The translations under genes were made by a program, and so were the position numbers. DNA of 64,000 nucleotides from Bacteroidota bacterium. GTDB taxonomy: Bacteria > Bacteroidota > Bacteroidia > J057 > JADKCL01. Under the pieces are notes generated by a model. It did no database searches. It saw only the letters and a list, made by a program, of their open reading frames with translations, and had not been told where the DNA came from. The stretch is from the NCBI GenBank assembly GCA_031415375.1, contig JANORP010000086.1:16569-80568 (forward strand), read 5' to 3'. Below are positions 9,246 to 47,270 of the stretch, one piece after another (positions within the stretch are counted from its first letter, which is position 1; each line of letters starts with the position of its first letter).

Positions 9246-9262
9246 GTATTGCTAGCGCGCAA

Positions 9263-9847: not shown

Positions 9848-10500
9848 TTTATGTCTCGGGGGAACATGAACTCCGACGACTTTCAAATAAAGGAAGTTCT
9901 TTTGAATTTGAGTGAGGGGTGTGCAAAGCATTTCATATAGGCTGGGTCGATGCCCTGCAAATGACTGATCGCAGCACAAACGTCAATTTCCGAACAGTCA
10001 CGAAAGCCATTTTCTGAATTGCATGCCCAAAAAGTGAATTTTGGCCACCAAACCAACTGGTGGATATCTCTGTAGATAGCACATCCTGCAATTGCAAACC
10101 ACCCACAAAAAAACCAGAATGGGTAGTCCAATGTTGACAACCAAGTTCCCAGCAAGCCAAAAGGCTTAATTATTGCCCAATTTACTAACAGTCATCCACA
10201 TTGACCACACATTGTACTAAAACGTATAGAGGAAAGAAGTTATCCACTTATCCACGGGCATAAGTAGATTCCACCAAATGGCCTCAGAGCCTAATTTCAT
10301 GGCCTGATTCGGTGTTGGGATCATGGAAGGGCGACCAAGCAACGATTGCGGGGTCACATTTCCATTCTGAACAATTACCGCCGCGATCTTACATTGTCCA
10401 CAAAACATTGATTTTTGAGCAACCGAAGGGATTTTATGCGCGTAAACCGCCTCAGGTACCTCGGTAATTTGTTAAATTCTCATCAACGAAAACATCTCGT

Positions 10501-12492: not shown

Positions 12493-12632
12493 CAATGCGC
12501 ACGCCTAGCGTGCACTTGTAACATCGGCAGAGGGAGTGTGGGTTGTGAGAAAATGCTCGCACTCAGACTCCCTCTCCCATTTCAGCGGAGCGTGATTGCC
12601 CCGTAGATTGTGTGGAATTCGTTTTCCTGAAT

Positions 12633-12640
12633 TATATTTG
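12633..12640 (+). promoter_or_regulatory. candidate Bacteroidota -7 promoter box (TAnnTTTG)
   Basis: TATATTTG lies 39 nt upstream of the ATG at 12679, which begins the signal peptide MMQKTALICLL. This position argues against the ORF-track start at 12655. Confidence 0.35.
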
Positions 12641-12678
12641 TTAATGTCCTCGGTATGGACTTGAAATCTGAAAAGGCT

Positions 12679-14913
12679 ATGATGCAAAAAACTGCCCTGA
12701 TCTGCTTGCTGACCTGCCTCTGTGGGCTAGGGCTGCTGCGTGCGCAAGAAAGGGTCATTTTCAAAGACGATTTCAAAGACAACCATCACGCCTGGACCAT
12801 GCAAGACGATGAAAAGGCGCATAGCGAGGTCGTCAATGGGCATTATCAGCTAGAGGGCAGGCAGCCCGATGCCGTGTCGATCTTCTTGCTCGATGAGTTG
12901 CCACTCAATGCCAGTCAGGATTTCACGATCCAAACCAAACTGATCCAGAAGTTTGGAGCCAAGGAAAATGGCTTTGGTTTTGTCTGGGGCGCTGCCGATG
13001 AAAGCAACTACTACGCATTCAACATCAATGCAGCTGGCCAATACCGCGTCGTGCGCTGCAGTCAAAGCAATGTCGAGGAACTCAAACCCTTCACGCAGAC
13101 CACAGGACTCGTGAAAACCGAGGGAGCAAACAAGTTGAGCCTGCGCACCGTGAGCGGCATGATGTCCTTTTACATCAACGATCAATTTATCTGGAGCCTC
13201 CCCAACCGCACTTTTCTCGGCAATCGTGCAGGCTATGTGCTCTATGGCAAAATGGAGGTAGAAGTCAATAGCCTCGAAGTGCTAGAGCTACAAGCCATGC
13301 CAGAAATCTTTGCCGAGCAATTTGACGACAACAGCCGTGGATGGGTCGTGACCGCTGCCGACAGCGCCTACATGATGATGGGCAAAGGACGCGTGCGCAT
13401 GAAAAATCAAAAAGGAGCTGCCCAGACCTATAAGCTCCGCGAAGTCCTCATCAACCCTGAGCGCGACTTTGAGATCGAAGCCCACATGAAACAAGTCACG
13501 GGCTCCCAAGAATTTGGATATGGCATCGGCTGGTCCATGAAAGACGATAAGAATGGCTATGCCTTCTTGATCCGTAGCCTGGGTTCATTCTCTGTGCGTC
13601 AGATCACCAATGGGCAGGTGAAAACCCTGGTCGATTGGACGCCAAGCAACCAGATGCTGCACCTCCGCGGCACCCCCAACAAGTTGGTGATCCGCAAGAC
13701 TGGCTTGCGCTACAACTTCTACCTCAACGATATTTGGATGGCCGAAGTGCCATTTACCAATATGACCGGGCAACAGCTGGGATTTGCCCTCGATGGTGAA
13801 AACCTTGTAGAGATGGACTATCTCGCCGTGCGCGAAGGTCAGAAAAGTTATGTTCCGCAGCCACCTGTCGTGACCCTGATCACACCGCAAGGCGACGACA
13901 TCACGGTCGATGCCAAAAGCATACAGTTCAAAGCTGGCATCAAGAGCGACTCCAAGCTCAACGGCGTGAAACTCATGGTGAATGACGAGCAGGTGCAAAT
14001 CCAGGCCAAGCGCGACCCCGAAGGCAAATTTGATCTCATGATCGACCAAGAGCTCGCCCTCAAACCCGGCTTCAACGACATTCGCCTCATGGCCAAAAAC
14101 GACGATGGCCTCATCCAGCGTTTTGGACTTCGCATCGCCGTCAAGACACCCGACCAACCCGTGAAGCGATCTGGCAACGACTATGCCCTCTTCATCGCCA
14201 CCGACAACTATGGTCAGTGGAGCCACCTCGTGAACCCTGTCAATGATTGCCGCACGATCGCCCAAGAACTGGAGACCAACTATGGCTTCAACACCGAGCT
14301 CATGATCGACGGCACCCGCAACGACATCCTCAAGAAACTGAAGGAATACGCCCGCAAGATATATGCAGACGGTGATCAGTTGATGATCTTCATCGCTGGG
14401 CATGGCAAGTTTGATGAGCTGTTTGGCGAGGGATATGTCGTCTGTACCGACTCCGAAAAGGACGATGAAGGCAACAACACCTACATCCCGCACTCCAACC
14501 TGCGCACGATCGTGAACGCCATTCCCTGCAAGCATACCTTTTTGATGATGGATGTATGCTTTGGCGGTACCATCGACCCCTTTATTGCCTCTGGTGGCGG
14601 CCACCGTGGCGAAGGCGATCCTGGTGGCGGCAAAGAACTCACCCAAAGCGACTTCATCGCCCGCAAATTGGCGTTCAAGACCCGTCGCTACCTCACCTCG
14701 GGCGGCAAAGAGTACGTTCCCGATGGCGTGCCTGGCAATCACTCCCCCTACGCCCGCAAATTTCTCGACGCCCTGCGCAACTATGGAGGCCACGACCGCA
14801 TCATGACCCTGGCCGAGCTTGTACTCTATTTCGAACGCCTCATTCCAGAGCCACGTTTTGGTGAGTTTGGGGCCAATGAACCAGGGAGCGACTTCTTGTT
14901 TATTGCGCGCTAA
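12679..14913 (+). CDS. secreted multi-domain protein with C-terminal caspase-fold (C14) peptidase domain (His/Cys dyad intact)
   Basis: Signal peptide MMQKTALICLLTCLCGLGLLRAQ. Two related beta-sandwich-like N-terminal repeats (FKDDFKDNHHAW..., FAEQFDDNSRGW...). Caspase block YALFIATDNY...LMIFIAGHGKF...HTFLMMDVCFGGT (Cys codon 14557-14559). Confidence 0.8.
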   Translation: MMQKTALICLLTCLCGLGLLRAQERVIFKDDFKDNHHAWTMQDDEKAHSEVVNGHYQLEGRQPDAVSIFLLDELPLNASQDFTIQTKLIQKFGAKENGFGFVWGAADESNYYAFNINAAGQYRVVRCSQSNVEELKPFTQTTGLVKTEGANKLSLRTVSGMMSFYINDQFIWSLPNRTFLGNRAGYVLYGKMEVEVNSLEVLELQAMPEIFAEQFDDNSRGWVVTAADSAYMMMGKGRVRMKNQKGAAQTYKLREVLINPERDFEIEAHMKQVTGSQEFGYGIGWSMKDDKNGYAFLIRSLGSFSVRQITNGQVKTLVDWTPSNQMLHLRGTPNKLVIRKTGLRYNFYLNDIWMAEVPFTNMTGQQLGFALDGENLVEMDYLAVREGQKSYVPQPPVVTLITPQGDDITVDAKSIQFKAGIKSDSKLNGVKLMVNDEQVQIQAKRDPEGKFDLMIDQELALKPGFNDIRLMAKNDDGLIQRFGLRIAVKTPDQPVKRSGNDYALFIATDNYGQWSHLVNPVNDCRTIAQELETNYGFNTELMIDGTRNDILKKLKEYARKIYADGDQLMIFIAGHGKFDELFGEGYVVCTDSEKDDEGNNTYIPHSNLRTIVNAIPCKHTFLMMDVCFGGTIDPFIASGGGHRGEGDPGGGKELTQSDFIARKLAFKTRRYLTSGGKEYVPDGVPGNHSPYARKFLDALRNYGGHDRIMTLAELVLYFERLIPEPRFGEFGANEPGSDFLFIAR

Positions 14914-14932
14914 GAACAAAACCTTTTCGACC

Positions 14933-15973
14933 GTGACAACCTCCCTCCTTCGCTGCCCCTACTGCCTGCAAGGCGTGCAGAGCTTCCTACGCGATGCCAA
15001 GACGAATGTACCGCATTGCCCCAATTGCCGCACCGACATCCCCAAAACCTTTTTGGACAGCGCACTTATGCTGCGCACGATGGTCGGCGTCGTCGGCTTC
15101 TCTGGGCATGGCAAGACCGTCTATCTCACATCGCTCTTCTCGACCCTCAAGCGCTTTTCCAACTATTGGAACGGCTACTATTTCAGGAGCCTCGACGACT
15201 TCACCCATCGTGTGATCTATGAGCAAGTCCCCCTTTTTGAAAAGGGCGACCTGCCAGAATCCACCCCCGCCAACTTCCCCAATCCAGCCTTGGTGCATTA
15301 CCATCAGCTGCCCGTGTTTCAAGATGCTTTCGTAGGCTACTACGACACGGCGGGCGAGGTTTTCAATGATGCTACGCAGATCGCAAGGGCTGGCTTTTTT
15401 GTCGCCCACTCAGACACCGTGCTCTTCATCGTGAGCATTCCCGACTGCGACTCTGGTGAACTTGATGATCACATGAGTCGCCTCCTTGATACTTATATCA
15501 GGGCTGCCGACGACAAACTCAACACCAACATTCGCAATACCCAGCGCTTGGTGGTGATTTTTACAAAATCCGACCTCCCGACGAGCCGGCTCAACGATGA
15601 ATTGAAAGACTGGCTCTCAAAAGGTGTGGCCGACTACTACGCCATGAACCTGAGCGACAAATTGCTCGATCTAGGCATGTTTTCGATCCGCATCGAAGAT
15701 TGGTTGCGCGAGGACCTCGGCTGCACCCGCTTTGCCAACATGGCCCGCGACCACTTCATCGAAGTGCGTTATACCATCGTGAGCGCCATGGGCATCACCG
15801 ACGACGATGATGAAAAACTCAGCCCCCTGCGTGTACTCGACCCCTTCCTCTGGGTCCTTGATTTTGCACGACGCGACAAGAAGATCATCGTCAAACAAAA
15901 CCTTTTCGAGCGCTTTATGGCATGGGTGAGAACCCGTAAAACTACCAAAATGCTCCCCGTGGGGACGAGATAA
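14933..15973 (+). CDS. zinc-ribbon-fused P-loop small GTPase
   Basis: Start moved to GTG 14933, 19 nt after the upstream stop (the ORF-track start 14819 overlaps the caspase gene). CPYC...CPNC ribbon. G1 GFSGHGKT (15095-15118), G3 DTAGE (15344-15358), G4 TKSD (15563-15574). Confidence 0.7.
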   Translation: MTTSLLRCPYCLQGVQSFLRDAKTNVPHCPNCRTDIPKTFLDSALMLRTMVGVVGFSGHGKTVYLTSLFSTLKRFSNYWNGYYFRSLDDFTHRVIYEQVPLFEKGDLPESTPANFPNPALVHYHQLPVFQDAFVGYYDTAGEVFNDATQIARAGFFVAHSDTVLFIVSIPDCDSGELDDHMSRLLDTYIRAADDKLNTNIRNTQRLVVIFTKSDLPTSRLNDELKDWLSKGVADYYAMNLSDKLLDLGMFSIRIEDWLREDLGCTRFANMARDHFIEVRYTIVSAMGITDDDDEKLSPLRVLDPFLWVLDFARRDKKIIVKQNLFERFMAWVRTRKTTKMLPVGTR

Positions 15974-15991
15974 GTCGCAAAAACAAAGCCC

Positions 15992-17815
15992 ATGAAAGTC
16001 CATCGCTACATCTACACACGGCTCACCAAGGACCTCTCCCCCACAGGTAAAAATGGTTTCCAATCCGCATTTGTGCCCGGCGACCTCATCGCACGCAAAG
16101 ATGTCTTGGAAATCGAGTCCCATATCCACTTTCCTGAAGGGTTGCAGATCGAAGGACAGTCAGTCGTGTTCTACAAGCAGGTCAAGACCGAGTTGTACAT
16201 GATTTTGCTCCTTCTACGGCCACTGCCCGATGTCAAGGATGACTTTGGGCGCAGTGGCGCTTTCTTGTGCGAAGGTTTTATTTTGGCAGAAAAGGATTGG
16301 CGACCCATCTGGCGAATCTCGGACTTGATCGAACTGGTCACGCCCTATCGTTTTGCATCGCTCGGGCAGCTACTTGCATCAACCGACGTCGATCGCACGA
16401 CGGGCTTCATTAGCGATCTCACGGTCACAGTTCCGCCAGGATATTGGACCGATGCACTGACATCGTCAGATGACGAGCCCCAAGAAGAATTGCTATTGGC
16501 GATGTACCACGTCGCCAAACTGCAAGACAAAGACTTGGCGATCGTCGTCGAAGGACTGCCAGCAGCCGTGACCCATAGGTTAGAAACCTGCGCCATGTTC
16601 ATGCCCGAGGCCCTGCGTGCACACACTGGATGGGACGATGCATTTGATGGCGGCAAGATTTTCTTTTCCCCACTCCGCATCTTCGGTTATAGCGAGCTAT
16701 TGCCCACCACCGGGAGACCCGTGGTGTTTCCCGCAGACGGGAGCGCACCCAAATGGCTAGAGGACGGTATGCAGCGTTTTGGAAAACCAAGCGATCCCTT
16801 CTCCAACTGGCTATTGGAAGTCTGCGTAAATACTGTACCCCGTGCACGGCTAGATGCAATGTATGCTTTGTCTCAAGCCATGATTTCTGGCAGACCTACC
16901 GCCATCGATATGGAAAGTGAGTCCATCTTCGAAATCGTCAACAAAGACGCGATTCGCAAGCTATTCATCCAAGGATTGCTGGTACACATGGAGCTGCCTT
17001 GGGCCGAGAAACTTGCTGACCTCACCATGGCCAACCATCAGCTCACCACATGGATGCAGGGATACCTCATCGCTGACCTCACCCATCTACTGGAAGTGAG
17101 CATCGTCTCTCAAAATCTGAGACCCGAGGGCATGAAAGACGCCCCTCCAACCAACCTTGTGCGCCAAGGCAGTGCAGCATTGCAGACGCTTGCAACGATG
17201 TGGACGCTTGAAATCATCACCCCAGAAATCTTGGATGACATCCCCGAGGATCAAATACCCGAGGTGCTCACCTTGATGCTCGGTAGAGGTTCCCATCAAG
17301 ACACCCCATTCGCGACAATCGTAAATCATTTTAGGGACTACTTGCACAAGCTTGCCAGAGATCCCAAAATCGCCGAGAACCTGCGTTGCTATGTCGCTGC
17401 AAAAGTCCCCGAGGAATATGTAGATTTCAAAGAAGGTATGGCAGCTGTAGCAGTACAATTGGGTGATTATGCCAGTCTGCGCGGCGAACCCACAGATTGG
17501 TTGCGCCTGCTAGACCGATGGCTCATTTCTACGGGAGGCAATTCCGAAGTCTGGAAAGCAGCAAAAACACTCGCTAAGACGACCGATCTAGGACGCTACG
17601 TCAATCTCAAAGCATTCGCCCTAGGTGAAGCTGCAATTCCTCATGAATTGGAGGGGAATGGCGATGGACGCAAAGGATTCCTAAGATGTCTCATAGAAGT
17701 CCATGGGTTCAATGAGCAAAAATTAATCGATATGGATTTTTTTTCAACAGAAGTCAGAGATTCCGGAAGCTCCACGGGCTTCATTGGCAAACTCAAGCGG
17801 CTCTTTGGACGGTGA
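15992..17815 (+). CDS. 607-aa GTPase-partner protein (GAP1-like N-terminus suspected) with MinD-like C-terminal amphipathic tail
   Basis: Lies 18 nt downstream of the GTPase gene. N-terminus IYTRLTKDLSPTGKNGFQSAFVPG resembles the YTS...G..GFQ..A.S.G signature of GTPase-associated protein N-domains (from memory, unverified). The remainder is mostly helical. C-terminus is GFIGKLKRLFGR. Confidence 0.6.
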   Translation: MKVHRYIYTRLTKDLSPTGKNGFQSAFVPGDLIARKDVLEIESHIHFPEGLQIEGQSVVFYKQVKTELYMILLLLRPLPDVKDDFGRSGAFLCEGFILAEKDWRPIWRISDLIELVTPYRFASLGQLLASTDVDRTTGFISDLTVTVPPGYWTDALTSSDDEPQEELLLAMYHVAKLQDKDLAIVVEGLPAAVTHRLETCAMFMPEALRAHTGWDDAFDGGKIFFSPLRIFGYSELLPTTGRPVVFPADGSAPKWLEDGMQRFGKPSDPFSNWLLEVCVNTVPRARLDAMYALSQAMISGRPTAIDMESESIFEIVNKDAIRKLFIQGLLVHMELPWAEKLADLTMANHQLTTWMQGYLIADLTHLLEVSIVSQNLRPEGMKDAPPTNLVRQGSAALQTLATMWTLEIITPEILDDIPEDQIPEVLTLMLGRGSHQDTPFATIVNHFRDYLHKLARDPKIAENLRCYVAAKVPEEYVDFKEGMAAVAVQLGDYASLRGEPTDWLRLLDRWLISTGGNSEVWKAAKTLAKTTDLGRYVNLKAFALGEAAIPHELEGNGDGRKGFLRCLIEVHGFNEQKLIDMDFFSTEVRDSGSSTGFIGKLKRLFGR

Positions 17816-18083
17816 TCGAAATCCGAACTCCAACATGGCAATGCCTCTCATTTTTCCGTGCTACTTGTTTGTAGGAAAATCGTCTCGGTTTTAGCCCATT
17901 TTCAAAGTGTACCCACTGATGCTCACGCATTGAGCAGCCCTAAACTCTTATCCACAAACCACTAAAATCTCCGATCTATTTCAGTGGCTCTAGAATTTGT
18001 AATTCCAAAATCTACTCGCTATTTTTCCGATGTATTGGTCCATCTGGGGCCCTATGTCATCGACCTAAAGCCACCTTATTCTC

Positions 18084-37019: not shown

Positions 37020-37373
37020 ATGAACAGCCGCATAGAATATTGGCTACAAATCAACCTAAATGAAGCCGATGAAACTTCAGTCACCGATTTATTGATGGTC
37101 AACGGTGCCACACTGAAACGAAACAATGCCTCGCTCAACCTTGTGTTTGTAGAAACGGAAGAAGTTCCTACGCGCGACTTCCTTTCAGAATTGGCCTTGC
37201 TGGTGAAAGCACAAGCACCAAAATTGATGGCGCTTGGAATCAGCGAAAACGACCTCGGAATCTTGGTACTTTACCAATATGACGCACAATGCAACATGGA
37301 GTTTTCCGTCCACCAACTCAAGCTACTCAGCGATGCAGGGCTTACGCTGAGCATTTCTTGTTGGCAAGGATAG
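37020..37373 (+). CDS. DUF4279-like small protein (tentative), immunity-island gene
   Basis: 117-aa ORF. C-terminal pattern ...LGILVLYQYDAQCNMEFSVHQLKLLSDAGLTLSISCW resembles DUF4279 family ends (from memory). Low confidence. Confidence 0.45.
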   Translation: MNSRIEYWLQINLNEADETSVTDLLMVNGATLKRNNASLNLVFVETEEVPTRDFLSELALLVKAQAPKLMALGISENDLGILVLYQYDAQCNMEFSVHQLKLLSDAGLTLSISCWQG

Positions 37374-37393
37374 TTTCCTCAAAATCCCCCAAC

Positions 37394-38575
37394 TCACCCC
37401 TCCTGCGCCACCGAACTCAACAGCAACTTTGTATTGTGCTCCAAACTCGGCGCACCCGTGAGTTTGAGTGAAATCGGCGGCATTGCGGCATCGTGGCGAT
37501 GTTGCAAGGCTTGCACGACGGCACTCACGGCCCAGTCATAATTCATGGGTTGATTGCCGATGATTTCCAGCGCATCCACATCGGCTGAGACCGCTGTTTT
37601 GCGGTCCTCGTTCCAGAGCGACATCAGCAGTGTGCCTTCGGTGAGATCGCGCTGTGTTTCCCCGCCGATCTGACCCACGACGGTCTTGACATCAAGTTCC
37701 AGATCATTCGCTTCCAAGCAGATACGACAGCGCACCCATGTCCAATCTGCATATTCCAATTGTGTGGCGCGGGCATTGCAATTGCGGCAATAGACGCTTG
37801 GAAAAGCCAACCTTTGCGCCAATTGTGAATAGATGATGTCGTCGATTTTCTCGGCCGTCAGGTGCATGTTTCTGCGGTTTTGGCCTTTGCGAAAACCTCC
37901 GAGTGCCACAGCCTGTTTCCAAGCCTTGTGCTCTTCCATGAGCTTGGCCATAGGGCCGAGTTTCAAGACATATTTGCCACTTGCGACCATGCTCAACACG
38001 CGGTGGGCCTCCATCGCAGCATTGCGAACCTCTACATCGGGGTCGGCTTTCAACTTCTCCAACGCTCCCAAGCCCACACGCGGATCCAATTCCATCAGAC
38101 CATTGACCGCTGCAATGCGCACCTCGGGGTCTGGATTGCGTCCTAGGTCGAAGATAAATGCCTTTGCAGTCTCCAAGTCACAAAAAGCGGCGATCTTTTT
38201 GGCGGTGACGACCAGCATCCATAGCCTGAAGGTTTGCGTTTTTTTGCCTGAATAGTCATATCTGAGCAAGCGTGGCACAAAATAGCCCACACCAAAGGCG
38301 ATCAAAGGGCCAGTTTGCTCCCTTAAAAAGGCCGCGACGATGAAAAACGCAAAGCCGATAAAGGCTGGCATCAAGTGAATAAAAAAGAGAAGATTCGGCC
38401 TACGCGTAAGCAGTTTCGCGCGCTTCAAGATGCCTTTGGGACGCGTGAGCCAGCCTGGCTCTAGCCACCAACGCCCCCACTTCTCAGCCCGCGCCTTGGC
38501 ATTGTAGCCGACCATGTAGGCCACGAAGACCCCCAAGAGGAGGCTGAATAGTCCATAAGTTTCTTCCCACTGCAT
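37394..38575 (-). CDS. TM + HEAT-repeat + zinc-ribbon + conserved C-terminal-domain protein, paralog 1 of 6
   Basis: N-terminal hydrophobic helices. HEAT-like DPEVRIAAVNGLMEL and DPDVEVRNAAMEA. YSQLAQRLAFPSVYCRNC...WVRCRIC, VVGQIGG, LEIIG, YDWAVSAVVQAL. Confidence 0.8.
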   Translation of the reverse strand: MQWEETYGLFSLLLGVFVAYMVGYNAKARAEKWGRWWLEPGWLTRPKGILKRAKLLTRRPNLLFFIHLMPAFIGFAFFIVAAFLREQTGPLIAFGVGYFVPRLLRYDYSGKKTQTFRLWMLVVTAKKIAAFCDLETAKAFIFDLGRNPDPEVRIAAVNGLMELDPRVGLGALEKLKADPDVEVRNAAMEAHRVLSMVASGKYVLKLGPMAKLMEEHKAWKQAVALGGFRKGQNRRNMHLTAEKIDDIIYSQLAQRLAFPSVYCRNCNARATQLEYADWTWVRCRICLEANDLELDVKTVVGQIGGETQRDLTEGTLLMSLWNEDRKTAVSADVDALEIIGNQPMNYDWAVSAVVQALQHRHDAAMPPISLKLTGAPSLEHNTKLLLSSVAQEG

Positions 38576-38677
38576 AGGTTACAATTGATTGATGGCTGAA
38601 AATTAAGCATCTAAATGCTGCTGCGCAAATCCGTGCATGCTCTCGGCAAGACGATGGCATTGCTCCAAAGGCGCAGC

Positions 38678-39901
38678 TCATGGCACCAAATGAAATTGAG
38701 GATCGAGGTCGCGCAGCAATTGCTGTGTGTTGCGCGACATGACGGGCGCATCCACCAGCTTCACGCGGATGCCTTTCCCATAATCAGGGTTTTCATTGTG
38801 CAATTTCTCAACGACGGCACTCACCGCCCAATCGTAATCGAATGGCGACCCACCGATGATTTCCAACGTTGTCATCGTCGCATTGCGCGCTTTTTGCGTG
38901 CGCACATCCCAGAGCTGCACATGTAGCATGCCCGAGACCAAATTCCAATCTTTGGAACCGCCGATCTGCCCTGTGACCTGCGCAATATCGGCCACGAGAT
39001 ACATGGCCTCCTTGCATTGCACGCAGCGCACCCAATCCCATTCCAAATAGGATTGTTGCTCGGCGATGGCATAACATTGCCGACAATACAACAGCGGAAA
39101 AGCCCTGCGCAATATCACCTGCGAATACACGATTTCATCGATGCGCTTGCCCGTCTTTTCAAAGAGGCTCTCGTAGTCGGTGCGCGAAGCAACCTCTGAG
39201 CGACGCTTTCGCAATCCATCCAAATTTTTGTGGTCGGCGATCAGTGCATTCATCTGACCCAAGCCGAGCGGCGGGCTTACCAACAACTTCTGAAGGGAAA
39301 TGATGGTAGCCAACGCAGCTGTCACAACCTCTGGCACGGGGTCTTTGGCCAATTTCTCCAAGATCGGTAAATGGTCGAGCGTCCCTAGCTCTTTGAAGCC
39401 CGTTGCTGCCGCGATGCGCAATGTCGGCTGGCTTTGATGAGCAGATGCCGACAGCAGTGCCACGGCATCCTCGGAATTGCCCAAACGAGTGATCATCTTT
39501 GCACCGAGCTCAGCAATCGCAAGCCTGAAATTGCGTAGCCTTTTGCCCAAACCCAAAAAATAGCCGATCCCAAAAGCCACACAATATCCTGCACACATCC
39601 CCATGGCATCGGTCAGAAAATCTGTGTCAAGCAAGGGGAAACTACCGCTATAGGTCGCCCAATAAAACATTCCACCAAATACAACCGCTGGCGTAACCAG
39701 CGACCAAGCATGCAACCAATTGTAAGGCAACAGCGCCAATTTGGCACGCCAAAGCACCTTTTGTGTTGCATTGTGGCCGCGCGGTCGCCAATAGCCCGAT
39801 TTCTCATTGGGTTTGAGATTCAAAAAACTAGGGAGACTCGTGAGAAAAATCACGCACCCCATGAGGCTCCAAAGCAAAAAAGAGGAAGATGAATCAGGCA
39901 T
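38678..39901 (-). CDS. TM + HEAT-repeat + zinc-ribbon + conserved C-terminal-domain protein, paralog 2 of 6
   Basis: YSQVILRRAFPLLYCRQC...WVRCVQC, VTGQIGG, LEIIGG, YDWAVSAVVEKL. HEAT-like LRIAAATGFKELG...DPVPEVVTAALATI. Confidence 0.8.
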   Translation of the reverse strand: MPDSSSSFLLWSLMGCVIFLTSLPSFLNLKPNEKSGYWRPRGHNATQKVLWRAKLALLPYNWLHAWSLVTPAVVFGGMFYWATYSGSFPLLDTDFLTDAMGMCAGYCVAFGIGYFLGLGKRLRNFRLAIAELGAKMITRLGNSEDAVALLSASAHQSQPTLRIAAATGFKELGTLDHLPILEKLAKDPVPEVVTAALATIISLQKLLVSPPLGLGQMNALIADHKNLDGLRKRRSEVASRTDYESLFEKTGKRIDEIVYSQVILRRAFPLLYCRQCYAIAEQQSYLEWDWVRCVQCKEAMYLVADIAQVTGQIGGSKDWNLVSGMLHVQLWDVRTQKARNATMTTLEIIGGSPFDYDWAVSAVVEKLHNENPDYGKGIRVKLVDAPVMSRNTQQLLRDLDPQFHLVP

Positions 39902-39907
39902 AGGCTA

Positions 39908-41143
39908 TCAATCATTTAAAGGTGTATGGTTTTCAGCCGCAAGCGTAGGATCTATGGTGCGCAATAAACTGTATGAATTCGACGACAGGAGCGGATAATG
40001 GGTGAGCACCACGTAAGGTCGAGGTGCGTCGTAGGTCACAAACGTATGCAACTGCTCCACGACAGCGCTCACTGCCCAGTCGTAGGCGATGTCTTGCAGG
40101 CCCACAATTTCCAGCCGATCGAGCTCGGCACCACGCGCCTTGCGTTCCTCACGGTCCCAAAGGCTCAATTTCAGTTCGCCATGGTGCAATTCCCAGGCCT
40201 CGACCCCGCCGATCTGCCCGGTCACCACCACGACACCAGGCTTCATCCCAAAGACGTCTTTGCAGCGTTTGCAGCGCACCCAAGCCCAATCTTTGAAATG
40301 GAGTTCCTCGCCTCTACAGCGACAGTCCATACAATAGACAGAGGGAAAAGAGCGTCGTAGGGGCAGCTGCGCATAAATCACGCGGTCAAATATTTCCTTC
40401 AAGCGATGGTATTCGACCAGCAAATCGGCCTTGAGGGTGGCATCGACCATGATGTCGAGCTGCGAATCGAGCCTTGCATAATCCAGGGCAACTTGCTCCA
40501 AAGAAATGACGCTTTCGCGCATTTGGCCAATGAGAACGGCCTGAATTTTTTCCAGTGAGTTCTTGGCAGCAAGGCGCACTTCTTGGCAGGCGTCATGCGT
40601 GAGTTGCTCCAAGATCGCATTGCCAGTTGCGGTGCCCAAGTACCGCAAGGCGATCGCTGCCGCGAGGCGTTGGCGCTTCTCAGGCTCTAAGCTCGCTTGC
40701 CCCAAGATCAGCTCAGCATCGTCCAATGTACCGCGTCGTGCGATTGCCTTGGCAGCTTGTATCGCCTCTGCTTGCAGGTGCTCACCAATCGCCTTGCGCA
40801 AACCGAGGAAATAACTGCCCCCAACGCCCAACGCAGCACCAAGCAGATAGCCTCCAAAGATATCCCAACGCAATGAACCTGCCAGCTGCCCATCGCCAGT
40901 CCCCCATGTCAATACCGAAAGCAACAAGCCCACAAGTCCCGTAGGGAGCACCAAATTCCAGGTAAATAGATACGCTCGCTTGGACAGCGCCAGTCGCACG
41001 CGACGTGTGAGCCTCTGGCCCGCAAGCTTGCCGACAGGATGCCAAAATGGGGATCGGTCATCGGTTTGGGAGCGGATATAAGCGGGGATACTGGCTAGGA
41101 AGACAGCCATCCCAAAGAACCCCGCGCCTAGCATCGCATCCAT
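39908..41143 (-). CDS. TM + HEAT-repeat + zinc-ribbon + conserved C-terminal-domain protein, paralog 3 of 6
   Basis: YAQLPLRRSFPSVYCMDC...WVRCKRC, VTGQIGG, LEIVG, YDWAVSAVVEQL. Start moved from the TTG at 41293 to the ATG at 41143 (MDAMLGAGFFGMAVFLAS) to match the N-termini of the other paralogs. Confidence 0.8.
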   Translation of the reverse strand: MDAMLGAGFFGMAVFLASIPAYIRSQTDDRSPFWHPVGKLAGQRLTRRVRLALSKRAYLFTWNLVLPTGLVGLLLSVLTWGTGDGQLAGSLRWDIFGGYLLGAALGVGGSYFLGLRKAIGEHLQAEAIQAAKAIARRGTLDDAELILGQASLEPEKRQRLAAAIALRYLGTATGNAILEQLTHDACQEVRLAAKNSLEKIQAVLIGQMRESVISLEQVALDYARLDSQLDIMVDATLKADLLVEYHRLKEIFDRVIYAQLPLRRSFPSVYCMDCRCRGEELHFKDWAWVRCKRCKDVFGMKPGVVVVTGQIGGVEAWELHHGELKLSLWDREERKARGAELDRLEIVGLQDIAYDWAVSAVVEQLHTFVTYDAPRPYVVLTHYPLLSSNSYSLLRTIDPTLAAENHTPLND

Positions 41144-41337
41144 GTAAGTGAGCTTGTATTTGAACTTACAAGATAAGAAAAATTGGATTAAGTGCTGCAC
41201 GCTTTGGCGGTCAAAAGGTGCCATCAATACAACAACTACTGGAAGTCTTTGTGCGCTGAGAAATGAAGCGTCACAACGTCGATGCAGCGTCAAAGCACTA
41301 ATCGGGAGCGATGCCGTTTTTCAAAATCCCACGCAAC

Positions 41338-42549
41338 TCACTCTGGCGCACGCAGCTCAAAGGTCGGCACGATGCTCTGATCCAAAGTCTTGAGTAAATG
41401 CAAGGAATTGGCTTCCAACACGGGATTGCCGACAAGTTTCACCGCGATGCGCGAACCAACGCCGAGGCTTTGGTTGTACAATTTATCGACGATGGCGCTC
41501 ACGGCCCAGTCGTAATTGATGGGCTTGCCACCCACGATTTCCAAGACATCGAGGTCGGCTGCGCGCGCTTTGCGGCTTGCATCGTCCCAGAGGTTTAAAT
41601 GCAATTTGCCGTTTTGGATGTCCCAGCTGACATCGCCGCCGATCTGTCCTATGGCTTGCTGCACACCCGGCTGCAGGCCATGTACCTCCTTGCATTGGCG
41701 GCAGCTCACCCAGTCCCATTCTTCATAATGGTGCTGCTCGGCACGGGCATAGCAGTTTTGGCAATAGACATCTGGAAATGAGCGCCGCAATGGCAATTGC
41801 GAAAAGACGATCTCGTCGATCTGCCGCGTGATTTCATGAAACTTCTCAAGGTCCAAGCTGTATTGGCGCTTCTTTCTCTTGCTGCGGAGACGCTTCACAA
41901 GGTAGGCATGCTCAGACACGTAGGTGTCCATGGTGCGCACACTCAGCCGGCCCTTGCCCTGATAGACTTGATGCAAGTCATTGTAGGCATCACGTGCCGC
42001 CGTGGCGACCGCTGTTTCCTTGTCTTCGCCGAGCAGCAGCAGGGCCTCGCCACCCTCCTTGGTCCCCAATTCGCGCAGGCCCATGGCAGCTGCGATGCGC
42101 AATGCAGGGTCTGTCGATTTGGTCAATGGCACCAAGATCGCATTGGCGGTAGCGGGTTGCACGCGGCGGGCGAGTTTTTGCGCTGCAAAAATGGCGATTT
42201 GCTTGCGGTAATTGGAGAGGGTATTCTTGTGGTCGAGCGGATAAGCGATGGCGGCGGCACCTGCGTAGCCGATCATGCCGCCGATGACAAGCGTGGCCGG
42301 CACGCTGAGTGGCAAAAGATAGATGGCCCCCAAAAATAGGCCCATGGCGAGCAAAGGCGAAAACAAGGGCAAGAGATACAAATGATTCCTCGATGACAGT
42401 GCCGTCTTCACGCGACGCACAAAACCTGCTTCACCACTTGGCCGCCATGGCCTAAACCAGCGGTACAGCCACCGCGGCTCCTCGCGGCCAAGCGCCTTGA
42501 TCGACCCCAATAGTGTGATCGCACCAGCAAATATTCCCCAAGTCAGCAT
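41338..42549 (-). CDS. TM + HEAT-repeat + zinc-ribbon + conserved C-terminal-domain protein, paralog 4 of 6
   Basis: FSQLPLRRSFPDVYCQNC...WVSCRQC, AIGQIGG, LEIVGG, YDWAVSAIVDKL. HEAT-like DPALRIAAAMGLRELG. Confidence 0.8.
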   Translation of the reverse strand: MLTWGIFAGAITLLGSIKALGREEPRWLYRWFRPWRPSGEAGFVRRVKTALSSRNHLYLLPLFSPLLAMGLFLGAIYLLPLSVPATLVIGGMIGYAGAAAIAYPLDHKNTLSNYRKQIAIFAAQKLARRVQPATANAILVPLTKSTDPALRIAAAMGLRELGTKEGGEALLLLGEDKETAVATAARDAYNDLHQVYQGKGRLSVRTMDTYVSEHAYLVKRLRSKRKKRQYSLDLEKFHEITRQIDEIVFSQLPLRRSFPDVYCQNCYARAEQHHYEEWDWVSCRQCKEVHGLQPGVQQAIGQIGGDVSWDIQNGKLHLNLWDDASRKARAADLDVLEIVGGKPINYDWAVSAIVDKLYNQSLGVGSRIAVKLVGNPVLEANSLHLLKTLDQSIVPTFELRAPE

Positions 42550-42650
42550 TGTTCCAAAAGGTGATGAATGAGCCTGATGTCAAAACTAAGTAAAAGATGC
42601 GACTTGGTAGAAGATCAAGCACCCCAAGACAAATCACAAATCCACCAATC

Positions 42651-42722
42651 GAAGCGGGAGAAGCGGGAGAAGCGGGAGAAGCGGGAGAAGCGGGAGAAGC
42701 GGGAGAAGCGGGAGAAGCGGGA
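42651..42722. repeat. 8 x 9-bp perfect tandem repeat (GAAGCGGGA)
   Basis: Read directly: gaagcggga x8 from 42651 to 42722. The last unit is the normal left arm of hairpin 1 of repeat-element copy C, so the tract is an expansion of that arm. Confidence 0.95.
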
Positions 42723-42770
42723 GCCTCCGGCTCCAACGCTGACACAACCGTGAGCCTCCGGCTCACGAAA
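42714..42770. repeat. palindromic repeat element, copy C (core hairpins; outer arms degenerate)
   Basis: GAAGCGGGAGCCTCCGGCTCCAACGCTGAC...GTGAGCCTCCGGCTCACGAAA has the same two hairpins and spacer as copies A and B. Located in the 275-nt spacer between paralogs 4 and 5. Confidence 0.7.
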
Positions 42771-42824
42771 AAAACACCTATCGTCTCGCACACCCACCGA
42801 CCAGCAATCATCACCTCACCACGC

Positions 42825-44012
42825 TCAACGCAAAATACCCAAATTGCCATCGAGCGCCCTAAGCAAACTCAAGCTGTTAGATTCCAAAACCGGCTCGCCG
42901 ACCAGCTTTACCGGAACTTCAGGGTGCAGCTGTGAGCTGTGCTGCTGCAAGCACTCCACGACTGCGCCCACCGCCCAATCGTAATGGATGCCCTGCCCAC
43001 CCATGACGTGCAATTCGTCCAGATCAGCACCCACGCCCGTGCGTGCGTCCTCATCCCAAAGTTGCAGCGTCAATGTACCCGCATGCAATCCCCACGGTCC
43101 ATTGCTACCGATATGCCCGACCACATCAATGATCCCCGTCTGCAAGCCGCCGACCGTCTTGCACTTGCGGCAGCGCACCCAGTCACGCCCCTCATGCACG
43201 AGACGCTGGGCACGGGCATTGCAAGCCCGGCAATAAACATGGGGAAAAGCGCGGCGCAAGGGCAATTGTGAACCAACGACCTTGTCCATGGTCCACAAGA
43301 TATCCGCCATGCGCATGCGTGACGCGTAGCGCCCCGGCCATATCGAACGCCAAGGGAGCCCATTTTCCAGTTGGTGGTATTCCTCGACCAAAGTATCCAT
43401 GCCTTCTACCGGTTGCGGTGCCAACTCACCATCCCAGGATTGCTTCAACTCCAGAAAGTCCCGCCGCGCCTGTGCACCGTGACTCGACTGATCCATTGCG
43501 CCAAGACCCCTCAGTTCCTCCATGGCCTCTGCCGTGCCCAGCGCCCGCAAGGCCTGCAAGGCAGCAAACCTGAAATCCACCGTCGCAGACTTCGCAAACG
43601 ATACCAAGATGTCATTGGCAATGGCTGGTGAAAGCCGATAGGCGGCTTCGCGTGCGCAATGGGTCACGATCTTGATGCGGTAAGATTTGAATAGCCCCAA
43701 GAGCAATCCCAAGAGTGCCGCAATAGAATATGTGCCAATGAGTGCGACAACAAATGGCATTTGGGCCGCGATGCCGCCCCACAGTAGCAGGAGTATCCCG
43801 CCCACGAGAAGCAAAGGCAACGGCAAAAAGATGCGCAGTGAATACAACCAACCTTGTGAGGACAAAGCCCTTCGCACGCGTGACTCAAACTTGACAACGG
43901 TGCGCGGTGCAAATGCACTCACATTGCGGCTGATCCAAGTCGCACTTCCACCCAGCATTCCTGCGGTGCGCAGCAAAAAACAAACAATCCCGATCACAAT
44001 TCCTGTTGACAT
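42825..44012 (-). CDS. TM + HEAT-repeat + zinc-ribbon + conserved C-terminal-domain protein, paralog 5 of 6
   Basis: GSQLPLRRAFPHVYCRAC...WVRCRKC, VVGHIGS, LHVMGG, YDWAVGAVVECL. This is the most divergent copy. Confidence 0.8.
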   Translation of the reverse strand: MSTGIVIGIVCFLLRTAGMLGGSATWISRNVSAFAPRTVVKFESRVRRALSSQGWLYSLRIFLPLPLLLVGGILLLLWGGIAAQMPFVVALIGTYSIAALLGLLLGLFKSYRIKIVTHCAREAAYRLSPAIANDILVSFAKSATVDFRFAALQALRALGTAEAMEELRGLGAMDQSSHGAQARRDFLELKQSWDGELAPQPVEGMDTLVEEYHQLENGLPWRSIWPGRYASRMRMADILWTMDKVVGSQLPLRRAFPHVYCRACNARAQRLVHEGRDWVRCRKCKTVGGLQTGIIDVVGHIGSNGPWGLHAGTLTLQLWDEDARTGVGADLDELHVMGGQGIHYDWAVGAVVECLQQHSSQLHPEVPVKLVGEPVLESNSLSLLRALDGNLGILR

Positions 44013-44101
44013 GGTCTATGCTATCTGTTGATCGCGCTGCCTGCATTTGCGCGGGGCTACGCCCAAAGTTGCGTCAGCCTTCCGAAACAAGCAACAGCAC
44101 C

Positions 44102-45310
44102 CTAATTGGGCCATCTGAAGTCTTGGTCTATCGTCTTGAGCAAACGCAATGTGTTGGGTTCCAACACAGGATCCCCGACGAGTTGCACAGGTATCTCAGC
44201 GCGGTCTTGGGCGTTGTGTTTGTGAAACAGCTCGACGACCGCACTTACTGCCCAGTCGTAGGTGATGGCCTGGCCAGCAGCGATTTCCAATCGGGAAATT
44301 TCCCCGAGGCGGGCGATACGCGTGGCCTCATTCCAGAGATTGACCCGCAGCGTACCCTCGTGGAGGACCCAGTCCTCGGCTGCTCCGATCTGCCCGATCA
44401 CTTCGTGTACCCCTGGCACGAGGTCATCGGCTTGGTGACATTGTTTGCAACGCAACCAATCCCAGCTTTCGTAGGCGAGCAATTCGGGGCGTGCATAACA
44501 GGTCTTGCAATACACATCTGGAAACGAACGCCGCACAGCGAGTTGCGAGAAAACCAAGTCGTCCATTTGCTGCATGACCAGATCCAGTTCTTGGGCGTGC
44601 TGGATGCGGTCGCGCTTGGATTTGCGGCGATAGATTTGCGCGATCAGTTGGCGATGTGCGATGGCTAGCGCCGGCATACTTGCGACTGGGATGGGCTTGG
44701 TCTTGCCATCGGTCAAAGCCAGGAGTTCATTGCGGGCAAGTCCGGCGGCATCGGCGACCTCGGGCGATTGATCCTGAACCAAATAATGCAGCATTTGTAC
44801 AGCCGATGGCGTGCCGACTGCCCGCAACGCTTTCACTGCGGCGAGGCGGCTCTCCCACCACGACCCATTGGCCAATTGCGCCAAAAACTTGACTGCCACA
44901 TCGGGATGTAGGCGGCGAGCGACTTCCAAGGCCGCATAACGCTGGGCTTCGAGGCCATAGCGGACGAGTTTGTCTGAGGCGAACGCCAAAACCCCAAGCG
45001 TGCTGCTACTGACCAAGAAACCAATGCCAAAGATTTCAAAAGCACTCCCAGGCTCGACAAAAAACGCCATGGCAAAGGCCCAAAACCCGAGAAACGGTAG
45101 TATCGAAAAGAAAAATGGCAGTGTGAGAAGTTTGGGCGAGGCGCTCATTGCTTGCCTCAGCCGCCGAATTGTGCGGGTATCGCCATCGGTACCTCGCTGC
45201 CTAAACCAGCGAAATTTCCACACAGGACCCATCTTGAGCCGATGGCGGATGCGTGCATACATCCAAACCGCTCCCGAAACGAGGCCCAAAGTCAATCCGG
45301 CATCAGCCAT
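44102..45310 (-). CDS. TM + HEAT-repeat + zinc-ribbon + conserved C-terminal-domain protein, paralog 6 of 6
   Basis: FSQLAVRRSFPDVYCKTC...WLRCKQC, VIGQIGA, LEIAAG, YDWAVSAVVELF. HEAT-like SRLAAVKALRAVG...DQSPEVADAAGLA. Confidence 0.8.
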   Translation of the reverse strand: MADAGLTLGLVSGAVWMYARIRHRLKMGPVWKFRWFRQRGTDGDTRTIRRLRQAMSASPKLLTLPFFFSILPFLGFWAFAMAFFVEPGSAFEIFGIGFLVSSSTLGVLAFASDKLVRYGLEAQRYAALEVARRLHPDVAVKFLAQLANGSWWESRLAAVKALRAVGTPSAVQMLHYLVQDQSPEVADAAGLARNELLALTDGKTKPIPVASMPALAIAHRQLIAQIYRRKSKRDRIQHAQELDLVMQQMDDLVFSQLAVRRSFPDVYCKTCYARPELLAYESWDWLRCKQCHQADDLVPGVHEVIGQIGAAEDWVLHEGTLRVNLWNEATRIARLGEISRLEIAAGQAITYDWAVSAVVELFHKHNAQDRAEIPVQLVGDPVLEPNTLRLLKTIDQDFRWPN

Positions 45311-45341: not shown

Positions 45342-47150
45342 TTATTGCCCGATGTGTTGCAGGCGGATGGTTTGCTGCTGGTCTTTGGTCTGCAGGCGCA
45401 GTCCATAGTTCCCGCTAGCAAGGCCATCCAAATTCCAGATGGTAGCGGCAGGTGCAAAGGCAATGACAGGTAAGTCCCTGGTTTCCAAAACTCGTCCAGA
45501 CACCACATCCAGCAATTCGATGCGGATCGTCTGTGACTGCCTAGCCGTCACGGTGAGCGTACATTCCGCGCCAGCGGGATTGGGGAATACTTGAATTGCT
45601 ACCGGAAAGGTGCTCGCCGCCTCCGCAAGGCCCACGATGACCGTAGTCGGGTTGGAGATCGCGGCACGCTGCCAGTGATTTTCGCCAGCGACGCAGCGGT
45701 ATCCCTTTGCAAATGTTTCGGTGGCGGCCACTTGGAGAATGGGCGAATACCAAAACTCGGCGGTGACGGTATCGGGCCTGATGTCCAAGATCCCATAACC
45801 ATGACTCGTGAGCTCGGAATAGACGTGGTGAGGATTGGCGGCCGAAATGGCTCCCGCCACCAATTGTGCTAGAAACCCTGTGATACCCGCCTCATCAAAA
45901 TTGCCTCGGGTGATGCTGGTGGGCAGAAATTCGACGGCAGCCGAACCTGCGCCTGTTGTCGAATTGTAGTTGTTGTAGTCGATCGGCAGGTCGCAAGTGA
46001 ACGAGGTATGGATATCCCCGCTCAAAACGACATTGTTGTCGATGCCGTTTTGATCGAGGTGGCTGAGCACGCGCACGCGTTCGCCATTGTAGCCATCCCA
46101 TGCACCTGAGTCTGCAACGGGGCCGTCTCCAAAATTGATGAGTCCACCGAGGCCAGCGGTGGAAAATCGGCCCATCATGCGCTCTTGTGCGAGCACGCGC
46201 CAGCGCGCACTCGACCCATCGATTTCCTGTGCCAGCCAAGCCCATTGACTGTCACCGATCATGGAATATTCGCCATTGGGGAGCGTGTCGCGGTCTCGCA
46301 GGGTGGTGGCGTCGAGCACCAAGAGGTCAAGCAGGTCACCGTAGGCAAGGCGGCGGTAGATCAAATCTGGCCGCGCTGGGTTTTGTAACCGCATCGGTAC
46401 ATATTCCAGAAAGGCTTGCTTGGATTCGGCCTCAAATTGTGGGGTATCGCCGTCGGTATCGTGGTTGTCCCAAGTGACTGTCCAAGGATGCATCTGCCGG
46501 GCGAGGCGCAAATCGGGGTCGAGCAGGTAATAGGCGTGCCGCTCGCGCCACTCGCTGAGGGTCTGGGGATCAATGGGCGCGGGCACAGGCACCCGCACTT
46601 GCTCATCTTGATCGACAAAATCATAGATGTAGTCGCCCAGGTGCACCACCAGGTCGATGTCGTCGCGCTCACCCACGCGGCGATAGGCATTGAAATAACC
46701 CGAGAAGATGCTGCTGCAACTCATCACGGCGAACCTCACCTGTGCCACAGCACCCGTGGGAGCCGTTTTGGTGCGGCCGACGACACTCGTTCGCCCCTGC
46801 ACATCGCTCCAGCGGTACCAATAAAAGCGCCCTGGCAAGGGCAGCAATGCATCGACCTGAGCGGTCCAGTCGGCGGGTTGATCTGCGATGGCTGTGCCAC
46901 TCGACACCAAGTTGCTCAGGCCAGCATCTGAAAACACTTCCCAATTGAGGGTGATCGGGGCGCTGCTCGGTCCCGGATCGACTTTGGTCCAGAGCAAAAC
47001 GTGATCGACCGTGGGGTCAAACGATGCCACGCCATGCAAAAACGGCGCATGCGCCGTGTCGGCCATCATATTGGGTGGCAAGGTCTGCGCAGGCAAATGG
47101 GCTGCAAAAACCCATGCGAGGCATAGGAAGATCGTGGCGTGGTGTTTCAT
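45342..47150 (-). CDS. PhoD-family alkaline phosphatase/phosphodiesterase with T9SS C-terminal sorting domain
   Basis: Signal peptide MKHHATIFLCLAWVFAAHLPAQ (start moved to the ATG at 47150). PhoD motifs HGVASFDP...LLWTK, FAVMSCSS...GYFNAY, VHLGDYIYD, VTWDNHD. C-terminal IQVFPNPAGAECTLTV...GNYGLRLQT... is a T9SS tail. Confidence 0.85.
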   Translation of the reverse strand: MKHHATIFLCLAWVFAAHLPAQTLPPNMMADTAHAPFLHGVASFDPTVDHVLLWTKVDPGPSSAPITLNWEVFSDAGLSNLVSSGTAIADQPADWTAQVDALLPLPGRFYWYRWSDVQGRTSVVGRTKTAPTGAVAQVRFAVMSCSSIFSGYFNAYRRVGERDDIDLVVHLGDYIYDFVDQDEQVRVPVPAPIDPQTLSEWRERHAYYLLDPDLRLARQMHPWTVTWDNHDTDGDTPQFEAESKQAFLEYVPMRLQNPARPDLIYRRLAYGDLLDLLVLDATTLRDRDTLPNGEYSMIGDSQWAWLAQEIDGSSARWRVLAQERMMGRFSTAGLGGLINFGDGPVADSGAWDGYNGERVRVLSHLDQNGIDNNVVLSGDIHTSFTCDLPIDYNNYNSTTGAGSAAVEFLPTSITRGNFDEAGITGFLAQLVAGAISAANPHHVYSELTSHGYGILDIRPDTVTAEFWYSPILQVAATETFAKGYRCVAGENHWQRAAISNPTTVIVGLAEAASTFPVAIQVFPNPAGAECTLTVTARQSQTIRIELLDVVSGRVLETRDLPVIAFAPAATIWNLDGLASGNYGLRLQTKDQQQTIRLQHIGQ

Positions 47151-47222
47151 AGCTTTGGATCGAACAGCAATATAGCCAAGAAAACCCACAGAAGCCCAAT
47201 CGTCGGCCCAACGTTGCGAAAA

Positions 47223-47270
47223 CCGTTCGTCGGCCCTCTCCAAGACTTTTGGGGAAGGCCGACGAACGAA
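47223..47270 (-). terminator. hairpin downstream of the 2H-phosphoesterase gene (candidate intrinsic terminator; member of a repeated hairpin family)
   Basis: CCGTTCGTCGGCC (47223-47235) pairs with GGCCGACGAACGA (47257-47269), a 12-13 bp stem. It begins 5 nt after the stop at 47275 and, on the minus strand, is followed by GTTTTCGC. Related TTCGTCGGCCC hairpins occur at 51929-51963 and 52019-52063. Confidence 0.45.

Follow-up and report, generated by a model that had tools for sequence, protein, structure and literature searches.

A six-gene tandem array from a Bacteroidota bacterium encodes predicted membrane-anchored HEAT-repeat proteins with a constant C-terminal module undescribed in the libraries queried

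The minus strand of a 64,000-nucleotide stretch of contig JANORP010000086.1 from a Bacteroidota bacterium (assembly GCA_031415375.1, positions 16,569 to 80,568; hereafter the window, whose own numbering is used throughout) carries six consecutive open reading frames (ORFs) at 37394-45310 that encode proteins of 393-411 amino acids (aa). Each protein is predicted to combine, in this order, three transmembrane (TM) helices, about two HEAT repeats, a helical linker, a CxxC...CxxC predicted zinc ribbon and an alpha/beta domain of about 100 aa. The zinc ribbon and the alpha/beta C-terminal domain (CTD; together ZnR-CTD) are the constant, family-defining module, and the TM, HEAT and linker segments are the variable parts. 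The domain and the family are undescribed in all libraries queried; the claim of newness covers these two and not a biological system. A first-pass annotation, made from the sequence alone, had drawn the six genes with the same boundaries as paralogs of one architecture, and the ORFs and a full-length alignment agree with it. The genes are listed below, with L numbers denoting fetched loci.

37394..38575, minus strand: paralog 1, 393 aa; three TM helices, HEAT, zinc ribbon and CTD; CTD hidden Markov model (HMM) E=1.6e-73; ortholog L015_8681
38678..39901, minus strand: paralog 2, 407 aa; CTD HMM E=7.5e-77; ortholog L015_7287
39908..41143, minus strand: paralog 3, 411 aa from the ATG at 41143; the longest ORF reaches a TTG at 41293 (461 aa)
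41338..42549, minus strand: paralog 4, 403 aa; 91% identical ortholog P0001
42825..44012, minus strand: paralog 5, 395 aa; ortholog L014_8151; absent from the contig of a close relative, L023
44102..45310, minus strand: paralog 6, 402 aa; ortholog in L023, 78% identical

The ATG was taken as the start of paralog 3 because its L023 ortholog aligns from residue 1 of this form, with 84% identity. Aligned end to end, the copies are 27-35% identical to the first and share 42 invariant columns, which include the four Cys of CxxC...CxxC as well as the motifs G.IG, LW and YDWAV.A.V. Since the DNA beneath the best-conserved motif is just 61-75% identical between copies (repeat families D1 and D3), neither recent amplification nor faulty assembly accounts for the array; the six genes are real, old paralogs kept by selection.

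Hydropathy and AlphaFold both count three N-terminal TM helices, within the two to four hydrophobic helices first proposed, and the TM1-TM2 loop is rich in Arg, Lys and Trp. By the positive-inside rule, the N-terminus probably lies outside and the HEAT, zinc-ribbon and CTD part in the cytoplasm, a placement that suits a zinc ribbon. The first-pass annotation had likewise put the soluble part in the cytoplasm, which would be compatible with the Arg/Lys-rich loop and the ribbon. The parts of paralog 4 lie at these positions.

42205-42549, minus strand: TM part
41950-42204, minus strand: HEAT part (HEAT_2)
41779-41949, minus strand: helical linker
41668-41778, minus strand: zinc ribbon
41380-41667, minus strand: alpha/beta CTD

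The full-length model of paralog 4, computed from a 30-sequence alignment, reached a pLDDT of 88.5 and a pTM of 0.81. Its membrane part consists of TM1 (residues 2-22), TM2 (57-78) and TM3, which continues into a long helix (85-129); it is followed by an arm of four short paired HEAT-type helices (132-196) and linker helices (207-257), and then by the zinc-ribbon strands (261-294) and a beta-beta-beta-beta-alpha-beta-alpha domain (298-389). A separate model of the C-terminal 168 residues, based on 74 sequences, had a pLDDT of 94.2. HEAT_2 (PF13646) was the sole family detected in a Pfam scan of the six copies; at a gathering threshold of 27.7 bits, one copy (paralog 4) scored 29.3 and the other five 15.8-26.4, and longer relatives scored up to 439 bits.

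The division into constant and variable parts follows from the mean pairwise identity among the six paralogs, which amounts to 53% in the zinc ribbon and 44% in the alpha/beta domain, as against 21% in the TM part, 29% in the HEAT part and 19% in the linker. The four Cys are arranged in two CxxC pairs with strands flanking both pairs in the models; they are invariant in the six copies and in alignments of 30 and 50 sequences, and at least 90% conserved in 74 diverse homologs. This pattern points to a zinc ribbon and predicts metal binding. Across the 74 homologs, the invariant or near-invariant CTD residues are the four Cys, two Gly, a Trp, a Tyr and an Ala, and judged by their kind they look structural, not catalytic.

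The C-terminal domain had initially been found impossible to assign to a named family, and wider searches lead to the same result. The ZnR-CTD gave no match in Pfam-A even at E<=10, none in PHROGs, and none in NCBIfam and PADLOC, where weak matches were confined to the HEAT part. A profile search of PDB sequences reached a best E-value of 0.16, which is not significant. Foldseek with the CTD model likewise returned nothing significant in PDB (best E 0.2, TM-scores 0.2-0.33) or BFVD (0.27), and the full-length model retrieved only HEAT, alphaRep and importin-type structures from PDB, at E>=0.012. The top full-length match, 7p0h, is an alphaRep-ComF fusion; as ComF was not matched by the CTD on its own, the hit is probably due to the HEAT-like alphaRep portion. 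On these models, the ZnR-CTD is provisionally without a known fold among PDB and BFVD. No CTD-like domain was found in any other ORF of the window or of the fetched loci.

One candidate relative was suggested by the genomic neighbourhood. The DO-GTPase2 of an operon described below has a similar beginning, in which a strand and a glycine-rich loop come after a zinc ribbon. Homology to the CTD found no support: the hhalign probability was 5% against one sequence, 14% when five orthologs were used and 12.7% for a profile of 44 sequences, and the alignment spans the zinc ribbon and first strand only. A TRAFAC/P-loop GTPase fold is not supported either, as the loop G(Q)IGG is without the Walker A Lys-Ser/Thr (GxxxxGK[ST]) and GTPase matches in Foldseek had E>1 and TM-scores of at most 0.32.

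The CTD could conceivably be an enzyme or a nucleic-acid binder of a kind not seen before, with the arrays encoding membrane-tethered isozymes. Zinc ribbons often bind nucleic acids, the domain has conserved acidic and aromatic positions (LWD, ADID.LEI, YDW), and its weak, non-significant structural likenesses are to macro domains, small GTPases and P-loop proteins. The missing Walker A motif, the mainly Cys, Gly, Trp, Tyr and Ala character of the invariant residues, the failure of Foldseek to find a significant match and the short reach of the hhalign alignment to DO-GTPase2 all count against this explanation, which we consider the least probable of those weighed here.

Outside the window the family is rare but real, and it occurs patchily in MAGs (metagenome-assembled genomes) of a few lineages only. 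A word-indexed search of 5.8 billion proteins yielded only 28 relatives of paralog 4, all unnamed or labelled 'HEAT repeat domain-containing protein', the furthest that NCBI labels for the relatives go. When 1.84 billion cluster representatives were searched exhaustively with an HMM, 98 passed at E<1e-30 and 631 at E<1e-10, the weaker of the latter including pure HEAT proteins. All named sources are Bacteroidota/Bacteroidia or Desulfobacterales MAGs. Searches of viral contigs, PHROGs and plasmids yielded no relatives, and an origin of the family from a phage or another mobile element was rejected on this ground. Two pattern scans of JGI metagenome contigs gave no relatives either, only unconfirmed pattern matches that were taken as chance.

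The ZnR-CTD was present at a domain E-value below 1e-15 in 147 retrieved proteins and was C-terminal in every one. It is joined to between 0 and more than 20 HEAT repeats, with or without a TM anchor. The commonest form has about 400 aa and the same N-terminal anchor, and a second class of about 620-700 aa has more HEAT repeats; soluble proteins with many HEAT repeats, short proteins without any and one protein with two CTDs complete the range. The last of these, P0091 (MCP4346602.1, from a Desulfobacterales MAG), is soluble, 667 aa long and built of two tandem HEAT plus ZnR-CTD units with CTDs at 226-378 and 505-636; duplication therefore occurs within single genes too.

Tandem arrays are the rule among the loci examined and a trait of the family. 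A CTD HMM scan of all fetched loci counted six copies in the window, five in the L001 and L005 arrays, two in L002, two in L003, three in L021, at least four in L013, at least seven in L015, ten in L020, at least ten in L014 and at least ten, mostly of about 650 aa, in L008; L010, L011 and L019 have one copy each. That homologs might normally be single-copy had been raised early as a reason to doubt the expansion; most examined loci are arrays of two to at least ten.

In a neighbour-joining tree, five of the window's six copies pair one-to-one with orthologs of L014, L015 or both, and most duplications are therefore older than those species. The tree also holds lineage-specific duplicates, and three major clades expanded independently. 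The contig L023, with 85-89% DNA identity to the window, keeps the order PhoD (the phosphatase gene upstream of the array), paralog 6, paralog 4, paralog 3; it is without paralog 5 and the adjacent repeat element, and the blastn gap corresponds to window positions ~42593-43985.

Ratios of non-synonymous to synonymous substitution rates (dN/dS) against L023 were 0.27 for paralog 6, 0.12 for paralog 4 and 0.18 for paralog 3, with 0.11 for PhoD as a control, and they ranged from 0.11 to 0.28 for recent paralog pairs and L001/L005 orthologs. Together with the orthologs of individual copies in other MAGs, these ratios uphold the early view of an old, selectively maintained expansion. The diversifying pattern that was raised with it did not appear: no signal of positive selection was seen at the regional level, where the highest well-sampled value was 0.43, in a TM region. 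A single 50-codon linker window of paralog 3 gave 0.75, on a dS of only 0.096. Thus, the arrays evolve by birth and death, with turnover through gene gain and loss, under purifying selection.

Sensors or adaptors, an immunity array and specificity subunits had been put forward at first as possible roles, and they stand as hypotheses. The reading that we favour, at somewhat less than an even chance, is that the proteins are non-enzymatic, membrane-tethered cytoplasmic adaptors or receptors, in which a variable TM/HEAT part is combined with the constant ZnR-CTD as a docking module. A non-enzymatic role is suggested by the set of invariant residues in the CTD (Cys, Gly, Trp, Tyr and Ala). The three-helix anchor would sit in the inner membrane and hold a cytoplasmic arm of about two HEAT repeats, a long helical linker, the four-cysteine zinc ribbon and the alpha/beta domain. 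The divergent TM/HEAT part of each paralog might then recognise a partner of its own on the cytoplasmic side of the membrane, and the conserved ZnR-CTD might dock all paralogs to one common partner or to each other, such that an array would represent a repertoire of specificities altered by gene gain and loss. A more far-reaching proposal holds that the ZnR-CTD has a new fold and serves all copies for docking or oligomerisation, and that the arrays form a combinatorial repertoire of membrane-tethered receptors, an innate-immunity-like set of sensors or decoys in uncultured Bacteroidota and Desulfobacterales that is independent of known defence and toxin systems; this we regard as unlikely, if far from negligible.

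Several points weigh against adaptors or receptors. Acidic positions of the CTD (LWD, ADID, LEI, YDW) are well conserved, and the domain might be catalytic. With well-sampled regional dN/dS values no higher than 0.43, diversification of the 'variable' part rests on old divergence and not on measured positive selection. Moreover, the neighbourhoods differ by lineage, from a caspase/DO-GTPase2 operon through housekeeping genes to a MoxR ATPase or a histidine kinase, and no partner emerges from them.

The neighbourhood in the window invites a different explanation. The array ends convergently beside a toxin/immunity island, as the first-pass annotation had described, and the gap to the last plus-strand gene (which ends at 37373) is 20 nt. 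The plus-strand genes that end there belong to a locus for an eCIS-core (extracellular contractile injection system; DUF4157) toxin with PoNi immunity genes; it is a second such locus that codes for the 2285-aa toxin described below. The six genes could accordingly be a homogeneous polyimmunity locus of HEAT-type immunity proteins, each neutralising a different polymorphic toxin from neighbouring cells. Tandem paralogs in variable number, two to at least ten at most loci, fit this concept, and Imm-HEAT is a known class of immunity proteins (Zhang et al., 2012; PMC3482391). In the window, the array has two eCIS-core/DUF4157 toxin loci with PoNi genes for neighbours, and the single-copy homolog of L011 lies beside an Imm22 (DUF4284) gene.

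The comparison with related genomes speaks against it. In L001, L002, L003 and L005 the array lies directly against the genes for DO-GTPase2 and a protein of about 605 aa, with no toxin locus between. The 19.6-kb toxin island is therefore a lineage-specific insertion, and its adjacency carries no functional weight. A functional tie of the array to DUF4157/eCIS-core toxin loci, implied by the early description, is rejected on the strength of this synteny. Toxin or immunity genes occur near family members only in the window and in L011; none were seen in L008, L013, L014, L015, L020 and L021. Housekeeping genes (sucC, carA, lpxC/D/A, eno, lptF/G) surround the arrays of L020 and L021. Furthermore, these are large proteins with a membrane anchor, their conservation is highest in a constant ZnR-CTD, unlike in known immunity families, and individual copies are conserved as orthologs under purifying selection. 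We consider a polyimmunity locus rather unlikely.

The island itself has features of its own. It spans 17815-37394 (~19.6 kb) and comprises two eCIS-core (DUF4157) polymorphic-toxin loci together with PoNi and other small putative immunity genes; one toxin has 2285 aa with TNT and YwqJ-deaminase domains, and the other has 943 aa. A 300-nt direct repeat (86% identity) is shared by the inner part of the gene for the 2285-aa toxin (22523-22822) and a downstream 176-aa ORF (25786-26085), a sequence pattern expected of an orphan toxin cassette usable for recombinational toxin switching. Small membrane proteins of the DUF3592 type occur in the island (30198-30698) and in L011 (100-609), beside the single-copy homolog; this recurrence may be a coincidence of conflict islands.

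On the far side of the island lies an operon (10501-17815) that is conserved in several related MAGs and encodes two caspase-domain (Peptidase_C14) proteins, DO-GTPase2 and a 607-aa protein. Both caspase proteins have signal peptides and one has RHS-like repeats; the DO-GTPase2 has an N-terminal CPYC...CPNC zinc ribbon and a GHGKT Walker A motif. The 607-aa protein (about 605 aa in the relatives) matched nothing in Pfam (even at E<=10, with no GAP1 domain), NCBIfam, PADLOC or PHROGs, and as a GAP1 analogue it would have to be highly divergent.

The array proteins could be variable membrane components, as sensors or effectors, of this putative conflict system. The array abuts the operon in L001, L002, L003 and L005, the same operon is present in the window, and in L008 an array of at least ten copies follows an ortholog of the second caspase gene, in a different arrangement. 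Published descriptions of DO-GTPase systems include TM components, arrays of linked genes and effectors of the HEAT/TPR type (TPR, tetratricopeptide repeat) (Kaur et al., 2020; PMC7159879). Several observations lower the chance of such a partnership. Where array and operon adjoin they are convergent, hence not one operon; the adjacency is confined to a single lineage and absent in L020, L021 and L013, and single-copy homologs have no such neighbours either. A DO-GTPase2 homolog in L025, 55% identical, stands alone with no array nearby. Each caspase protein has a signal peptide, whereas a cytoplasmic location is predicted for the ZnR-CTD, and neither the missing GAP1 match of the ~605-aa protein nor the low hhalign probability between CTD and DO-GTPase2 profile lends support. 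The contexts of L020 and L021 and the solitary DO-GTPase2 of L025 rule out a universal link to caspases or DO-GTPase2; a link within the lineage of the window could still exist. We consider a role in this system quite unlikely.

Upstream of the array, the next gene on the same strand is the following.

45342..47243, minus strand: PhoD-like phosphatase; Pfam PhoD 9.5e-72; weak match to a type IX secretion system (T9SS) sorting tail; 31 nt upstream of paralog 6

This gene precedes the array in the same order in L001, L002, L005, L014 and L023. No terminator-like site was found in the 31-nt gap, in a scan that was uninformative for promoters and terminators and whose promoter part used a sigma-70 consensus not appropriate for Bacteroidota; from its arrangement, co-transcription of PhoD and the array is possible. 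A housekeeping or physiological membrane role can be envisaged on this basis, for instance co-expression with the secreted PhoD under phosphate limitation, or envelope biogenesis. The kept position of PhoD, the gap without a terminator-like site, the location of the L020 and L021 arrays among core metabolic and lipopolysaccharide genes, and purifying selection that is on some copies comparable to that on PhoD are in line with it. Such a role is nonetheless improbable, as a copy number that runs from one to at least ten and differs even between close relatives would be unusual for it; PhoD is missing in L003, L008, L020 and L021, and the family is rare, patchy and restricted to MAGs of few lineages.

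The remaining contexts are diverse. In L010, a Desulfobacteraceae MAG, a 242-aa near-bare ZnR-CTD gene overlaps the end of a gene for a MoxR-type AAA_3 ATPase by 14 nt (9169-10729); this ATPase is rather short (281 aa), and the pair could be an operon or a frameshifted MoxR-CTD fusion. In L019, a 698-aa family member is overlapped by the gene of a TPR histidine kinase. Co-occurrence with DUF4157 toxins, eCIS or T9SS genes had been proposed as a check in the first-pass annotation; among the examined loci, none of these was seen as a consistent partner.

Inside the array lies a composite intergenic element.

42651-42797, no strand assigned: tandem repeat and REP-like (repetitive extragenic palindromic) element, between paralogs 5 and 4

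A perfect 9-nt tandem repeat, GAAGCGGGA x8.1 at 42651-42723, is joined to a REP-like double-hairpin element at 42708-42797. The latter belongs to a dispersed element of about 90 nt with three intergenic copies (29029-29118, 36305-36394 and 42708-42797; families D4 and D5), each with two GC-rich hairpins, GGAGCCNCNGGCTCC ... GAGCCTCCGGCTC. It had been noticed at the outset that a repeat element common to the toxin loci sits inside the array, and the third copy confirms this. In this copy the 5' end GAAGCGGGA is expanded into the 9-nt repeat, ~100-175 nt upstream of paralog 4, and the repeat could, from its sequence, be a slippage-prone site affecting expression. Elsewhere in the window, a second perfect 9-nt tandem repeat, CCGAGGTCA x3.7 at 6607-6639, lies inside or at the end of a 606-aa ORF (4914-6734).

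If membrane-tethered adaptors or receptors are indeed what these genes encode, an undescribed bacterial family, whose defining domain has no relative in the curated families or solved structures searched, has been repeatedly amplified into long membrane-anchored arrays. Arrays of a constant module joined to a variable module are typical of recognition repertoires, and finding out what the conserved module binds could uncover a new kind of recognition or scaffolding close to the membrane, in bacteria that are uncultured and possibly filamentous. Uncharacterised families of such size are not rare in metagenomic data; the present one has an unmatched fold and an unusual array organisation. Even without a function, the definition of the domain is worthwhile, as it could bring together hundreds of proteins whose present label is only 'HEAT repeat domain-containing protein' or 'hypothetical'.

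Three known systems lend themselves to comparison. Homogeneous polyimmunity loci are conceived as tandem arrays of immunity paralogs, and Imm-HEAT is one of the classes described (Zhang et al., 2012; PMC3482391). The present arrays resemble them in consisting of tandem paralogs of one family, in offering HEAT repeats as the likely binding surface, in a copy number that varies between relatives and, in this window, in adjoining toxin/immunity genes. They differ from Imm-HEAT in that the toxin linkage is not conserved, that the proteins have ~400-690 aa with a three-TM anchor and a constant zinc-ribbon and alpha/beta module, and that individual copies persist as orthologs under purifying selection. 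DO-GTPase/GAP1 systems are NTP-dependent conflict systems in which TM components, arrays of linked genes and 'effectors' of the repeat type are frequent (Kaur et al., 2020; PMC7159879). The likeness to these lies in the zinc-ribbon DO-GTPase2 gene and the caspase-domain proteins found nearby in several related genomes; the differences are the convergent array, an adjacency seen in one lineage, a ~605-aa protein in which no GAP1 was found and a CTD with no detected homology to the GTPase. Finally, generic HEAT/PBS-lyase-like proteins (PF13646 HEAT_2; NblB-like) resemble the present proteins in the central helical hairpins, whose match to HEAT_2 is weak, but the module that defines the present family is the C-terminal zinc ribbon with its alpha/beta domain and not the HEAT repeats.

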